A stretch of DNA of 64,000 nt, from contig CAIUGE010000116.1 of the NCBI GenBank assembly GCA_903898645.1, positions 2,965-66,964 on the forward strand, read 5' to 3'. This DNA comes from Oligoflexia bacterium (lineage in GTDB: Bacteria; Bdellovibrionota; UBA1018). Position numbers and translations under genes: made by a program. The notes beneath the pieces were generated by a model. It was given only the letters and a program-made list of their open reading frames with translations, was not told where the DNA came from and searched no databases. Positions 57,145-64,000 of this stretch are shown here, piece by piece (the stretch's first letter is position 1; the number at the start of each line of letters is the position of its first letter).

Positions 57145-57786
57145 TTACAGGGGACCTATAGCTGTCCAATAGAAAGTGTTTGCCAACACGCTACCATTTG
57201 ACGTTTTAACTCCAACGACAAAACTGGTAGCACTCATTGCACCCCACCCTACACCAGCTCCGATGAATTGCGTGGCCCCAGAAATTCCTGGACCCTGATC
57301 GCTTAAAGTTGCAGTTACATTATAAACTGCTGAAGAAAAAGCAATCGGAAAAGTAATAGTAAAGGCAGCATTAGGCGTTCCTGACATCGTACCGTAAGTA
57401 TACGTTCCCCACTGGAGCAGCAATCCACCCGGCAAGGCAGCATACCCATTTGCCGACTTCAAATACTTTCCATTATTACAAGTTATATTTCCGCTTACTG
57501 CAGCATCCCCACTCACATCCAATGTATGCGCGGGCGCTGAACTCCCAATCCCAACTGACCCAGTAGCAAAATAAATGTTTGAAGAGCTCGCTACCCAAGG
57601 ACTACTGACAGTGCTTGACAGAGCGCTCGTGATAGACGCAAAATTACCCATCATCTGACTCGCCGATATAGGACTCCCGGCTGTAAAATTATAAGGCAAT
57701 GTCACTGAAGTAGCATGTGCTGAAAACAAAAAAAAGAAGCACAAAAAGAGCATCATCTTGCTTGCTTTGTCGAGAATATGCATCAT
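57145..57786 (-). CDS. secreted protein with a phage tail-fibre gp53-like C-terminal domain
   Basis: Signal peptide MMLFLCFFFLFSAHA. The N-terminal motif TLPYNFTAGSPISASQMMGNFASI is shared with the gene at 27949. The C-terminal LPGGLLLQWGTYTYG...FTITFPIAFSSAVYNVTATL matches the conserved LPxGLIIQWG...FPxAF tail-fibre domain. Confidence 0.5.
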   Translation of the reverse strand: MMHILDKASKMMLFLCFFFLFSAHATSVTLPYNFTAGSPISASQMMGNFASITSALSSTVSSPWVASSSNIYFATGSVGIGSSAPAHTLDVSGDAAVSGNITCNNGKYLKSANGYAALPGGLLLQWGTYTYGTMSGTPNAAFTITFPIAFSSAVYNVTATLSDQGPGISGATQFIGAGVGWGAMSATSFVVGVKTSNGSVLANTFYWTAIGPL

Positions 57787-58934: not shown

Positions 58935-59534
58935 TTGACTTTTCATGGAAAAATCATTACTTTCGTGCCCCTCATGTCAAAACAAAAAACCATTGCCCGC
59001 GCAATGACACGTATCCTTTCCGAGGTCGGAGAAGACATCTCACGTCCTGGCCTTCAAGACACACCCAAGCGTTTTGCCAAGTCATTCTCCCACCTTCTCT
59101 CAGGTAGTGACCACATTGACCTTGACCCAAAAAGCCTCTTTGCCCACTCTACCCAAGAGCTCATCGTTATCAAAGATATCGAGTTCTACTCCCTCTGCGA
59201 GCACCACGTCCTCCCCTTCTTTGGCAAAGCCCACATTGCCTACATCCCCAATGGCAAAATCATCGGCCTTTCCAAAGTCCCCCGCATCATCGATACCCTC
59301 TCAAAACGTCTCAATGTCCAAGAATCACTCACTGCCAAGATCTGCTCAGAACTCGACAGGATCTTAAAACCTAACGGTATCTTAGTCATCCTTGAAGCAT
59401 CACACCTCTGCATGATGATGCGTGGCGTCCGAAAACAGCACTCAGTCACCCTCACTCAAGCCGTACGCGGAGTACTCGAGCATCCCGACACAAAGCAAGA
59501 CGCAATGCGCCTGATACAAGGCTCATTAGTATGA
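58935..59534 (+). CDS. folE: GTP cyclohydrolase I
   Basis: LCEHHVLPFFGKAHIAYIP and the LTAKI...HLCMMMRGV motifs are present. The protein is about 190 aa. Confidence 0.9.
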   Translation: MTFHGKIITFVPLMSKQKTIARAMTRILSEVGEDISRPGLQDTPKRFAKSFSHLLSGSDHIDLDPKSLFAHSTQELIVIKDIEFYSLCEHHVLPFFGKAHIAYIPNGKIIGLSKVPRIIDTLSKRLNVQESLTAKICSELDRILKPNGILVILEASHLCMMMRGVRKQHSVTLTQAVRGVLEHPDTKQDAMRLIQGSLV

Positions 59535-59689
59535 TAAGACGTATTATCATTATGCGTGCTCGATTTTTCTTCGAATGCATTGCTTCCAACACACATAGCT
59601 AGCAAGATATCTTTACCGCACTCAGCGCAGCAGAAACTTTTCCTAGCTGACCAGCTGGATCGCAGTCTCCAATAACGCTCGCGCTCTTA

Positions 59690-59910
59690 TCCAAACGAAG
59701 ATCAAAAGCGATATCGTTAATCGAGTCATGTTATTACAATGTACCTATAATAATTATAATAACAGTCTTTTAGTTGATACTTTTCTCTCGCACTACTGCA
59801 TCAGAGCAATGCAAAGTAATTTCTCTACGAAATAATATCTTTTATTTTGATATCTGTTGCCAAAAAAACACGTGCCCTCATGTGAATCAATTGACCCAGG
59901 CTAGCAAAAA
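59690..59910 (+). repeat. copy 1 of a ~200-bp promoter-like repeat (repeat A)
   Basis: ...CAAAGTAATTTCTCTACGAAATAATATC...CAATTGACCCAGGCTAGCAAAAATGGCACACATAGCACTA... is similar to 62690-62900. Confidence 0.7.
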
Positions 59911-60829
59911 TGGCACACATAGCACTACACTGATGCATCAAAATATTTAACAGCAAATACTATCACGCTCAATAGACAGATATCTTAAAACCAAAGGTTA
60001 TGCACAAAAAAGTCTGAAGAGCCGAATTTTCAATCTTCATGATGGACCCCCTGTGATTATCTCATCGCACAAAACGTCCTCATGAGTGCCTGGAAAAGTC
60101 TACGAACAAGGAGCATAGCACTACGCGCAATATCCTTGTCAGATCAGCATCTTCAACTTTCCTAGAACTACTGTAGGCACTCCAGTCTCATCTTTCACAA
60201 AAGAACATGCATTACCTAGATAGACACACCCCCTCATCCAGCCACACATAGCTCCTTGCGGACAGATTTCTCTTGCAGACTTTTAGCAATACGGGGCGCC
60301 GATCATCTAAGGACCTCTAAAATGAAAGGCTTTCTTATTCATGCCCAGCTGACTGTCTTTATAAGACAGGACCTTCCGTCCTGCATCATGCGGTCTTCCA
60401 AGATTTAAATTACTACATCGCAACATGAAACGTTTTTTGTACTCGCTTGACACACAAATAAGCAACCCAATTTCTTTATTGCAACGGCTTCACTCAAGAG
60501 ACAACCACTCACCCACGATGCGATGCATTAATGCTCTATAAGGTATTTTTATTGTCAAAACGGTTGTGGACCGTTTCGCTAAACTTGCAGCATAAGCAAG
60601 CATTATTTCTACAACTTTGCCTCGTATCAAGAAAACTATGAATACTACTATGACTAAAAGCGTTATTTTTCCCTTTTAGCTTAACACCAAAAGTGTCGAT
60701 ATTACAGAAAGCGCACATGTGTCGCTTGCGATGAAGGCAGATGATCGCCGACCTGAAGGGCGCTAGAAAAACAGCCTATGTGTGTTGTAAGTTTTTTAAA
60801 ATTCACACAGGCTTACAGAAGGATGATAT

Positions 60830-62332
60830 ATGGTCCGTATTCAAAGTATATTTATATTTTTATTAATTTCAGTAACGATTACAAAAAATGTCTTAGCTGC
60901 GACCTATGACGAGTCGCTCAGAGAGCTGTATGCTCATATTGCATTTTTAAGCACTATACAAGGAAATCTCACCAAGGTCAGCCAAAGTACCAAGCTATTT
61001 GAAACTATTACTAATAAAATTAAAGATGCCACTCGTGCTGCTAAGCAGGCTGAGGCTGCTAATATTTCCCATCATACTACTTATTTAGTTTTCCCAGCAT
61101 ATATTGAATCGGCTCTTCGTGATGCACGAACGCTGAAATCGAATATTCTTAATAGTAATAGTAACACTCAGCTCATTACTCTTGCTACAGAGGCTTACAA
61201 TTCCGCTATGTATAACATCGAGACTAATTCTGCACAAATCAACAACACAAGTGCTGCTGAAGCCACTAAGCAAGCTCGCAGGTTACACCTTGCACTCCCC
61301 ACCACTATCAAGGGCCCGCAGATTCCTCCGCCTCCTCCGCCTAGTGCCGCATCAGCAGTATCTCTCCCTCAGCTTCCTAATCGCCCTCCTGATGGCCAGA
61401 GAACCTCTCACCGTGATCATACTTCGATGGCACATCCCTCCGAACCCTTTCAAAACATTTTACCATCAGCTCATTATCTTACTAGCCAACGCTACGCGCA
61501 GAAGGATCTTCCGAAACCAGGCAAAGAGAACCTGCCGGAACAACTAGGGTCCGCACTGAGGACTCCTCATATTTACCCTCCCTTGACGCCCCCTCCTCCC
61601 ATCAGTCCTAATGCCACAATACTTACTCCCCTTAGTCATGTTCCTCTGCCCCCCCCTAACAAATCCAGGTTTGCTGACACAACTTCTAACACCCACTCCC
61701 TCCTACCTCCGCTCACACTGAGGCCTGCCCCTCTGCCTCTCGATACTGCCACCAATCCCCAAACGTCAACAAAGCCACCGAGTCTCTTCTGGCCGCCATC
61801 AAAGCCATTGCTCACCCTTTCCCGTCCTCCCTACAGTGCAGTCATTCCACCCGCCGCATCTGATCCTAGCAAAACCACTGCGCAAATTCCGATACAACAT
61901 AATAACCCATCGCCCATCCTTGACCCAACTGACAAAAAAACAGCAGCTCCTCAGCCAGTAATTCCCGTTACCGACGATATTTTTCACCCTATTACTGGCA
62001 GCAGTGATCCTGCTGCTGGCGCATCGCATCACGAATCTCATAATCCCCTCTCTGGCTCTATCGTTCATCTACAAGCACGACAGGTGCCTGCTTCCAGCAC
62101 TACCGACAGCCCTCCTGCCAGCACTGCTACTGTTGTTGCACCACCTCATAATCCACAACCCCCTGAACACGATTCAAACAAGAGCAGCCCTCGGCCCAAA
62201 CAACAGCCAGAGATTCAAAATGATGCACATCAAATTCAGATTAAAACAAGGTGCTCTCCATTTGCCACACTCTTAAATAAATTCACAAGGATACTTTGCT
62301 GCTGCGTTTTTCCCCGTACCCCACCTCCATAA
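60830..62332 (+). CDS. secreted proline-rich protein (500 aa) with a C-terminal Cys cluster
   Basis: Signal peptide MVRIQSIFIFLLISVTITKNVLA. A helical N-terminal ~150 aa is followed by PQIPPPPPPSAAS and about 300 aa of P/S/T-rich low complexity. It ends ...ILCCCVFPRTPPP. Confidence 0.6.
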   Translation: MVRIQSIFIFLLISVTITKNVLAATYDESLRELYAHIAFLSTIQGNLTKVSQSTKLFETITNKIKDATRAAKQAEAANISHHTTYLVFPAYIESALRDARTLKSNILNSNSNTQLITLATEAYNSAMYNIETNSAQINNTSAAEATKQARRLHLALPTTIKGPQIPPPPPPSAASAVSLPQLPNRPPDGQRTSHRDHTSMAHPSEPFQNILPSAHYLTSQRYAQKDLPKPGKENLPEQLGSALRTPHIYPPLTPPPPISPNATILTPLSHVPLPPPNKSRFADTTSNTHSLLPPLTLRPAPLPLDTATNPQTSTKPPSLFWPPSKPLLTLSRPPYSAVIPPAASDPSKTTAQIPIQHNNPSPILDPTDKKTAAPQPVIPVTDDIFHPITGSSDPAAGASHHESHNPLSGSIVHLQARQVPASSTTDSPPASTATVVAPPHNPQPPEHDSNKSSPRPKQQPEIQNDAHQIQIKTRCSPFATLLNKFTRILCCCVFPRTPPP

Positions 62333-62339
62333 ACTATTG

Positions 62340-62500
62340 AAGTAATATACTCCATGACCCTTCGTACTGGTCATAATCGATTCCACATACCTTCAGCGGC
62401 ACCAAGGCAAGCAGCTTAAATCAGTTGAGCATATTGGCAGCAAACCCAGAGGGGCGTCCCCCATCTTTTCGCAGCTACCCAAAAAGAAACCACGCTCTGT
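62340..62500 (-). pseudogene. degraded duplicate of the lipB 3' end
   Basis: GTCATAATCGAT...TTTTCGCAGCTACCCAAAAAGAAACCACGCTCTGTTTG parallels 63725-63880 (GTCATAATCGAT...TTTTTTCGCAGCTATCCCAAGGGACGCTATCTTCTGTTC), which encodes ...KIASLGIAAKKWVTFHGIAINMV. Confidence 0.55.
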
Positions 62501-62689
62501 TTGTCTGAAAAAAATATCACGCATGTCATGGAAATGATACGTTTTGATGAAAAGTAACTACGTCATCAGGTGTTTGTTGATTATTCTTTTATTGCAAAAA
62601 CTCTTTCTGCATTATCACTAACTGAATCACCCAGCTAGTAGCGCTCACTTTCTCATTACTCATCAAAACGAACATCAAGATACAGGAGC

Positions 62690-62900
62690 GCTCATTCAAA
62701 CTATGACCATTACTTTATACTTATAATAATGATCATGACTTTTTTTAATTACTTTTTTTCTTATGCAGCCAAACCGGGTCGACTACAAAGTAACTTTTCT
62801 GCGAAAATATATTTTTTTTGGTATCTGCTACCAAAAAGACGCATGTCCTAATGGACACAATTGACACAGGCTAGAAAAATATTATGTATTTTTATTATGA
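62690..62900 (+). repeat. copy 2 of repeat A, with TTGACA(-35)-like and TATGTA/TATTAT(-10)-like boxes upstream of the 62919 ORF
   Basis: ...CAAAGTAACTTTTCTGCGAAAATATATT...CAATTGACACAGGCTAGAAAAATATTATGTA...ATAGCACTA... Confidence 0.7.
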
Positions 62901-62918
62901 ATATATATAGCACTAATA

Positions 62919-63158
62919 ATGACACTTGCGAATGCTGATGATGGTGCACAAAAAATAATGGACGCACGTTCAGTCGGTGCTTTAACGCTTCCGTACATAG
63001 TAAAAACACTAAAAGACTATCCAGAAACTATATCCTCATTAAAAGAAAGCGAATCAGAACGTTCAAAAAAACACCAAACACACGCGAGAGATGAATATAT
63101 CTTTTCTCTAAAAATGATAGGCAAAATTCTTAAAGTTGATACAAATAAGAATAATTAG
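62919..63158 (+). CDS. hypothetical small protein (79 aa) downstream of repeat A copy 2
   Basis: ORF only. It is AT-rich. Confidence 0.3.
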   Translation: MTLANADDGAQKIMDARSVGALTLPYIVKTLKDYPETISSLKESESERSKKHQTHARDEYIFSLKMIGKILKVDTNKNN

Positions 63159-63647
63159 GCAGAAATACTCAAGAAATATGCTGATCAAAATTGGAATAAT
63201 GAAGATCCAATAATTCTCAAGATGCTTTCTACATACATGCCTATCGAGGACATAGGGGGCGGAAGGTAACCAAAAGAGACGAGCAGCAGTAATTGCACGC
63301 GAACGAATAGCTGAAATTGTAGATGTGTACGGAAATTCACAAGAAAAGCAAGATGCGCAAACAGATCTAGGACTCCTGCATAAGCCTGAGATATTTACAA
63401 GGACACACACCGTATATTATTTTGATAAGCAACGCGAAGCGACTGGCTAGGTGTTTCGTATACCACAATTTAAATTAAACATTATAAATTAAACATTACT
63501 GACGAACTCATTGAACGATACAGACAACAGTATCTGAGTCAACCTAAACCTGAACCTGAAAAAACGTGTCCTCAAGTTTCACACAACAGTCTTTTTGGAA
63601 AGCTCTGGAACTGCTTCTTCCCAAAGAATCAAGTGCACCCATAAGCA

Positions 63648-64000
63648 CTACCCAAGCTCATTCTGTAAAGAATCCAAGCATACCAATTCAAACTCACGGC
63701 GCCAATCCTGAGGCAATACTGCATGGTCCTTCGCCCGGGTCATAATCGATGCTGAATATCCACAGGGCGATGCCAACGAAAATGGCTCAAGTCCGTTCAC
63801 CATGTTGATCGCAATCCCATGGAAGGTTACCCATTTTTTCGCAGCTATCCCAAGGGACGCTATCTTCTGTTCACCTACCCAAACACCGCTAGCGCCATCA
63901 CGACGATGCGCTTTAATCCCAAAATGATCCAGCCCTGCGATAACAGAGTATTCTAATCCGCGTAGGATATGCGCAAGATCATGCCTGCCACCACCCTGCG
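63648..64000 (-). CDS. lipB: lipoyl(octanoyl) transferase, 3' part; the gene runs off the window end
   Basis: Minus-strand translation gives ...DLAHILRGLEYSVIAGLDHFGIKAHRRDGASGVWVGEQKIASLGIAAKKWVTFHGIAINMVNGLEPFSLASPCGY..., matching LipB core motifs. The stop is at 63648. Confidence 0.75.
   Translation of the reverse strand, partial: QGGGRHDLAHILRGLEYSVIAGLDHFGIKAHRRDGASGVWVGEQKIASLGIAAKKWVTFHGIAINMVNGLEPFSLASPCGYSASIMTRAKDHAVLPQDWRREFELVCLDSLQNELG

Follow-up and report, generated by a model that had tools for sequence, protein, structure and literature searches.

Repeated blocks in a variable interval between folE and lipB of an Oligoflexia bacterium: possible scar of an old local duplication

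Some prophages and islands integrate into the 3′ terminus of a protein-coding gene and bring a replacement end with them; e14 and phage 21, both in icd of Escherichia coli, and ICESt1 and ICESt3, in fda of Streptococcus thermophilus, are examples. At these sites the intact gene is followed by a displaced, non-functional 3′ fragment in direct orientation, with atypical DNA lying between the two. A comparable arrangement is present near the right-hand end of a 64-kb stretch of DNA from an Oligoflexia bacterium (GenBank assembly GCA_903898645.1, contig CAIUGE010000116.1), which is referred to here in its full length as the window. The 4.1-kb interval in this window that extends from folE to lipB, the octanoyltransferase gene, is termed the island. 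It contains a dead internal piece of lipB (lipB′) and two copies of a repeat (A), which are interspersed with two stretches of cargo. Unlike the sites occupied by e14, phage 21, ICESt1 and ICESt3, neither an integrase nor an excisionase was detected in the island, phage and integrative and conjugative element genes are absent, and the unit is 1.4 kb long. Moreover, the fragment is without the true gene end, the edges have no conserved core, a second repeat (A) of the same age is present, and the resident end of lipB looks vertically inherited.

Two further types of locus are instructive for comparison. The island resembles a decayed tandem duplication with a truncated pseudogene in that the repeated blocks are collinear and equally diverged, the dead copy is closest to the resident gene and has decayed neutrally, and mobility genes are unneeded. 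It differs from such a duplication in that unrelated cargo within both units and a 157-bp spacer where they join break up the homology, and in that persistence to ~30% divergence is unusual. Thus, any duplication at this position has been heavily remodelled. Tandem accretion of islands at transfer RNA (tRNA) or transfer-messenger RNA genes is similar in that repeated modules accumulate at the end of a conserved gene and their content varies between relatives. However, the target here is a protein gene, a tRNA is absent, the attachment-site (att) copies number n rather than n+1, and an integrase pseudogene was not detected. Overall, the number of copies, the matching ages of the repeats and the descent of the resident end of lipB point to local duplication. 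The interval is read here as a variable, non-essential slot that bears the scar of one old duplication of the segment from A to the 3′ part of lipB, remodelled later, and we give this reading about an even chance of being correct.

The sequence and the list of open reading frames (ORFs) place folE on the plus strand and lipB on the minus strand, so that the two genes converge on the island, and the order across the interval is A1, cargo 1, lipB′, A2, cargo 2, lipB (Table 1). An earlier note on this DNA, made from the sequence letters and ORF list, had proposed the same layout, which was borne out when both repeats were confirmed. The two pairs are collinear and in the same orientation, and nothing else is repeated. 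Alignment of lipB′ with positions 63716-63871 of lipB produced 67.5% identity over 157 columns in blastn (E 6e-15) and a Smith-Waterman score of 51 compared with 11.3 ± 1.7 in 200 shuffles, among which the maximum was 19. The identity of this pair was 68.8% when gaps were excluded, and the Kimura two-parameter distance was 0.42 ± 0.07. For A1 and A2, blastn detected 69% identity over 228 columns (E 3e-22), and the Smith-Waterman score was 68 compared with 11.4 ± 1.6 in shuffles; identity excluding gaps was 72% and the corresponding distance was 0.36 ± 0.05. The distances of the two pairs are indistinguishable and hence compatible with one event. Similarly, the presence of two copies of each block, without a third piece of lipB, is as one duplication predicts. 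Searches at relaxed tblastn thresholds revealed no lipB-like segments beyond these two, including in the space between folE and A1.

The degraded copy of the lipB 3′ end that the note had described is a real direct repeat of lipB. However, it proved to be an internal piece that stops short of the lipB stop codon (63648-63650): the terminal 68 bp of lipB have no counterpart at lipB′, where the score was no better than that of shuffles. When read in the lipB frame, lipB′ displays two frameshifts and two in-frame stops, with identity at 20 of 52 residues, and it is accordingly classed by alignment as a genuine pseudo-fragment of lipB on the minus strand. Mismatches were distributed evenly over codon positions 1, 2 and 3 (18, 13 and 17, respectively; p 0.56), which indicates neutral decay of lipB′ rather than divergence as the end of a working gene. 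The longest exact run in the pair (13 bp) is situated inside the repeat instead of at an edge, although decay could have erased a core.

The descent of lipB′ and of the resident lipB end was assessed with three distant relatives (L005, L007 and L008). lipB′ showed 69% identity with the resident lipB and 40-44% with the genes of the three relatives, from which the resident lipB itself differed less (51-56% identity). In addition, the motifs AAK[KR]W and SIMT are common to lipB′ and the resident LipB, whereas L005 and L007 possess AIRKW, EVMA and DVMG. The proximity to the resident gene and the common lineage-specific residues indicate that lipB′ arose from the lipB of this lineage, or from a very close one. 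When the LipB protein of the window was compared with those of L005 and L007 and the values were scaled by the identity between L005 and L007, relative identities were 0.50 and 0.65 on the 5′ side of the repeat boundary and 0.58 and 0.73 within the repeat, in a comparison of low power that comprised 52 + 22 codons. The C-terminal tail of the resident LipB also was alignable with those of L005 and L007. As relative identity is the same on the 5′ and 3′ sides of the boundary, the resident lipB end does not look imported, and the proposal in the earlier note that an element supplied this end was not upheld. The visible lipB fragment employed as a protein query recovered relatives only, at 42-46% identity. 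Beyond the window, contig L164 extends the lipB frame, and a 213-aa product with the LplA-B_cat domain is called on a public contig.

Repeat A, which the note had set at 59690-59910 and 62690-62900, likewise proved to be real. The first copy lies where it had been placed, whereas the second had been offset by 20-30 bp and truly starts ~30 bp earlier. Further copies of A were not found in the 64-kb window, and no Rfam family matched at a permissive threshold. A MITE or IS-like mobile repeat would have terminal inverted repeats, a target-site duplication and many copies; terminal inverted repeats are absent from the ends of A, of which two copies occur within the 64 kb. TTGACA-like and -10-like boxes had been noted in A, but promoter-like sites are no more frequent than in shuffled sequences (11 compared with 9.1 ± 3.1 expected). 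A role of A as a terminator gained no support: the minus-strand hairpin with its T-run is unconvincing, with z values of -0.09 in A1 and -2.4 in A2. A third A-like match, the 22-mer at 60799-60820 upstream of the 500-aa ORF of cargo 1, is marginal or due to chance, as eight of 500 shuffles equalled its score against A2 and the score against A1 was not significant. The resemblance of spacer S1 to a partial copy of A also was dismissed as chance.

The space downstream of lipB is occupied differently in other members of the clade. The best identities of the Mrp protein were 61-62%, to proteins of Bdellovibrionia, Bacteriovoracaceae and Oligoflexia metagenome-assembled genomes, and the best identity of FolE in a metagenome collection was 55%. 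With identities of at most 62% for Mrp and 55% for FolE in these comparisons, the organism belongs to an uncultured, poorly sampled Bdellovibrionota-like lineage. No close relative was available for comparison with an empty site, the nearest being at 62% protein identity for mrp in genomes and 55% for folE in metagenomes. L005, L007 and L008 retain lpdA and lipB, and mrp follows a few kb further downstream; folE adjoins mrp in two of the three (L005 and L007). Unrelated genes occupy the interval in each relative (Table 1), and the space downstream of lipB is therefore a variable slot in the clade. The island bore no relationship to the slot genes of the relatives, and neither a recombinase nor a second lipB fragment was present at the three loci. 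The slot recurrently holds genes for surface or secreted proteins across the Bdellovibrionota-like clade.

The favoured duplication can be envisaged as follows. The ancestral order would have been folE - A - X - lipB, where X denotes the sequence between A and lipB. One event would then have produced a second copy of the segment that extends from A to the 3′ part of lipB, either by unequal crossing-over that generated a tandem duplication or, equally, by a Campbell-type event in which a copy that stemmed from this lineage, or from a very closely related one, was re-inserted. The copy joined to the 5′ part of lipB would have stayed functional, whereas the other piece of lipB would have been dead on arrival and subject to neutral decay. 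Subsequent insertions and deletions may have stripped lipB′ of its final 68 bp and, in at least one unit, exchanged the sequence that separates A from lipB, such that the units would now hold unrelated and compositionally atypical cargo, namely the gene for an orphan proline-rich secreted protein in one and an AT-rich pseudogene in the other. We infer both the origin in a single event and the order of the subsequent remodelling. The region is no longer mobile; it is seemingly a relic, with lipB and probably the 500-aa ORF as the exceptions.

Several features agree with a duplication: each block is present twice, in unchanged order and orientation, the blocks are of equal age, and the copy derives from the resident lipB. 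Other observations weigh against it. Homology is not continuous across the unit and the junction. Comparisons of X1 with X2 and of spacer S0 with S1, and that of the lipB tail, score like shuffles, and at least two to three later replacements or deletions are needed. Recombination usually collapses tandem duplications, which seldom last to ~30% divergence. Both cargo stretches are compositional outliers, which fits imported DNA, and a 157-bp spacer lies at the presumed junction. The argument from equal divergence is rough, as selection acts on one of the two lipB copies.

The earlier note had interpreted the layout as two tandem integrative elements. More broadly, the island could hold the remnants of one or two site-specific integrative elements that entered the 3′ end of lipB, supplied a replacement end and lost the integrase along with most other genes, with A as an element end and lipB′ as the displaced end of the gene or that of an earlier element. 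This explanation is rather unlikely. The displaced 3′ fragment, directly oriented and 1.37 kb away from the intact end, is a typical footprint; the cargo is atypical in composition, with X2 showing the lowest GC content and no local GC skew; both cargo genes are orphans; and slot content differs in every relative examined. Furthermore, if the copies originated in different hosts, the low conservation of the lipB tail could have put it beyond alignment. The layout, the atypical cargo and some duplicative event at the lipB 3′ end thus survive from that interpretation, but the mechanism does not. No recombinase was detected by Pfam in six frames of 59535-60835, which include X1a, in the 500-aa ORF or in the one reading of 62333-63660 that was scanned, the reconstructed X2 protein, nor in the 15 kb to the left of the island. 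Everything scanned was consistent with the claim that the window is devoid of an integrase. The suggested search beyond the window also produced none in the 4.2 kb to the right, which accommodate lipB, lpdA, the E2 gene and lipA. The 4.1-kb island yielded no blastn match among 50,697 phage and 72,556 plasmid records, neither cargo protein belonged to a PHROG family, there was no viral contig, and neither tRNA genes (ARAGORN) nor Rfam families were found in the island. As n tandem elements are expected to generate n+1 att copies, two elements need three copies of lipB; only two exist, and the two-element model therefore fails on copy number. The units of 1.4 and 2.8 kb are too small for autonomy, and the edges of the repeats show no identical core, though decay may have erased one. 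The resident 3′ end of lipB exhibits no foreign discontinuity, and the excess of third-position differences expected had the ends diverged as functional sequences in different hosts is absent. Moreover, S0 and S1, the supposed distal ends of the elements, are unrelated. The searchable literature contained no lipB-targeting island or lipB integration site; the one match found used lipB for a lipase gene, which is unrelated. The sharp stops of homology at the block edges fit neither the duplication nor the integrative model cleanly, and both require later replacements. A bolder proposal, which we consider distinctly improbable, is that the lipB 3′ end would be the attachment site of a family of tiny integrase-less islands that are mobilised in trans by a recombinase from another locus and deliver genes for orphan secreted or effector-like proteins in this Bdellovibrionota-related lineage. 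The two units would then be a tandem array with A as a conserved arm, and the breaks in public contigs at 60.9 and 62.87 kb would reflect gain and loss at the population level.

Import from a related strain or species presents a further explanation, which is unlikely. DNA with the order donor lipB 3′ - X2 - A2 - S1 would have entered by homology-facilitated illegitimate recombination, with homology in lipB as the anchor and an illegitimate join within the recipient lipB, and the recipient lipB′ - X1 - A1 segment would have been pushed aside. A1 and A2, as well as lipB′ and lipB, would then be orthologues from two lineages, and X1 and X2 would differ because the slot varies between lineages. 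Import accounts for the sharp conserved blocks split by unrelated sequence and for the equal divergence of both pairs, does so without an integrase, and accords with the variability of the slot among relatives. However, orthologues with working ends should differ mostly at third positions, in disagreement with the counts observed, there is no mosaic break in the resident lipB at 63871, the tail of lipB′ is missing, and no donor-like relative is known. A nearly identical donor would make import indistinguishable from the favoured duplication. That the similarities are due to chance, or to two unrelated events that look collinear, is scarcely credible. Nothing but the small number of blocks (two) speaks for it. 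The E values, together with Smith-Waterman scores 24-34 standard deviations above those of shuffles, exclude chance, and independent events are at odds with the same order, orientation and divergence of the blocks. Duplication scars that have been remodelled within a variable slot are ordinary features; this one occurs in an unusual organism and has little significance beyond this genome. Nevertheless, it illustrates that an integrative element should not be called from a displaced 3′ gene fragment and AT-rich DNA alone.

Table 1. Coordinates of the features in and beside the folE-lipB interval, and of the genes that occupy the corresponding slot in three relatives
Feature	Position	Strand	Basis or content
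folE (GTP cyclohydrolase I), left conserved boundary of the slot	58935-59534	+	Pfam GTP_cyclohydroI 2e-64, full length
Spacer S0, folE stop to A1	59535-59685		No homology to S1
Repeat A copy 1 (A1), non-coding, 33% GC	59686-59909	+	Matches 62659-62879
X1a, 0.9 kb	59910-60829		No ORF >60 aa; non-coding or decayed past recognition
Cargo 1, orphan 500-aa protein	60830-62332	+	ORF list, shuffles, protein searches
lipB′, dead internal piece of the lipB 3′ third	62347-62501	-	Codons 122-173 of 195 visible
Spacer S1, lipB′ to A2, 157 bp	62502-62658		No significant similarity to S0, A1 or A2
Repeat A copy 2 (A2)	62659-62879	+	Matches A1
Cargo 2 (X2), decayed gene of ~240 codons	62919-63647	+	Frame broken by an in-frame stop and frameshifts
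Intact lipB (octanoyltransferase) 3′ part	63648-64000, runs to ~64289 outside the window	-	Pfam LplA-B_cat
Slot genes, L005	5076-6929		Two unannotated proteins
Slot genes, L007	2101-5520		FG-GAP protein and 497-aa protein
Slot genes, L008	6270-9916		OmpA-family, adhesive-domain (ice-binding-like) and GDPD proteins

The surroundings of the island are compact and of housekeeping character, including sdhAB, a metallophosphatase gene, mrp, folE and argS. Housekeeping genes flank the island on both sides, with mrp and folE to the left and lipB, lpdA, the E2 gene and lipA to the right. The sequence downstream of folE is gene-poor, as had been claimed: 59535-60829 and 62333-63647 are the sole gaps of >0.5 kb in a window of which the rest is 87% coding. 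The accompanying description of the sequence as AT-rich applies to part of the island, which is a compositional mosaic. Positions 62801-63200 comprise the 400 bp with the lowest guanine-plus-cytosine (GC) content in the window (0.318; background minimum 0.347), whereas the 3′ two-thirds of the 500-aa ORF are among the most GC-rich segments (0.52-0.53) and have the most negative GC skew. Throughout the window GC skew is markedly negative, averaging -0.15 over windows of 400 bp, apart from short exceptions of approximately zero around 28.2-28.9 kb and within cargo 2 (62.8-63.6 kb).

The ORF of cargo 1 extends for 500 codons, compared with a maximum of 318 in 2000 local shuffles that preserved composition. 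By eye, its product possesses a signal-peptide-like N-terminus (MVRIQSIFIFLLISVTITKNVLA/AT), and the C-terminal two-thirds consist of 15% proline. The AlphaFold2 model of the N-domain was helical, corresponding to a generic helical bundle at low confidence (predicted local distance difference test 62). The full-length protein matched only itself in a word-based search of 5.8e9 proteins, as did its N-terminal 165 residues among 1.84e9 representatives, and it was assigned to no Pfam or PHROG family. The GC content is 0.37 in the segment for the N-domain, whereas the proline-rich remainder is C-rich with a GC content of 0.52 and a GC skew that reaches -0.53; on this contrast in composition, the gene may be a fusion. 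A cysteine cluster, CCCVF, is located at the C-terminus. The secreted protein is probably still expressed and could be a lineage-specific factor in interaction with a host or prey.

Cargo 2 is convergent on lipB and ends at the lipB stop codon. Its first piece, 62919-63158, is called as a 79-aa ORF in public assemblies. Apart from having the lowest GC content of the window and a GC skew of approximately zero, it shows an AT skew of +0.2 to +0.33. The reconstructed protein matched no Pfam or PHROG family, and a homologue search with it found none; the identical 79-aa cluster was not returned either. Judged from its interrupted reading frame, cargo 2 is an AT-rich pseudogene. Six-frame scanning of X1a with Pfam produced no family match. 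Similarity between X1 and X2 did not rise above that of shuffles, and cargo 1 and cargo 2 were unrelated by tblastx. The comparison of S0 with S1 gave a Smith-Waterman score of 10, with 9.1 ± 1.3 in shuffles, and the two are unrelated. S1 is possibly a junction or filler of the duplication.

A few metagenome contigs in ENA are 100% identical to the window; ENA records for samples with this organism are SAMEA6872966, SAMEA6872968, ERZ1426645, ERZ27313566 and ERZ27313567. On one public contig the gene order to the right of the window is lipB (213 aa), the dihydrolipoamide dehydrogenase gene lpdA, an E2 acyltransferase gene, lipA and a partial gene. Contigs end at 60901-60911, and two start exactly at 62869, inside A2; a single contig spans the segment in between. 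The 500-aa protein is recorded on one contig only, and Mrp on five. The breaks may stem from problems with coverage or homopolymers, from re-assembly of the same reads, or from real structural variation at the level of the population. Public gene calls omit folE from contig L001, where positions 1378-1977 correspond to the folE of the window, and list two antisense ORFs (57 and 44 aa) instead; the folE frame is intact on this contig and has a full-length Pfam match despite the omission.

Two genes elsewhere in the window are of separate note. The minus-strand gene at 57145-57786 encodes a product of 213 aa, which combines a signal-peptide-like N-terminus with a C-terminal domain like that of the phage tail-fibre protein gp53 (Pfam 3e-14; PHROG tail fibre, virion structural). 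It stands alone between mrp and the metallophosphatase gene, with no prophage around it. The minus-strand gene at 46181-46777 encodes a 198-aa protein of LRR_6 leucine-rich repeats of the ribonuclease inhibitor type, which are eukaryote-like (Pfam 2e-18), and hints at a repertoire for interaction with a host or prey in this organism.

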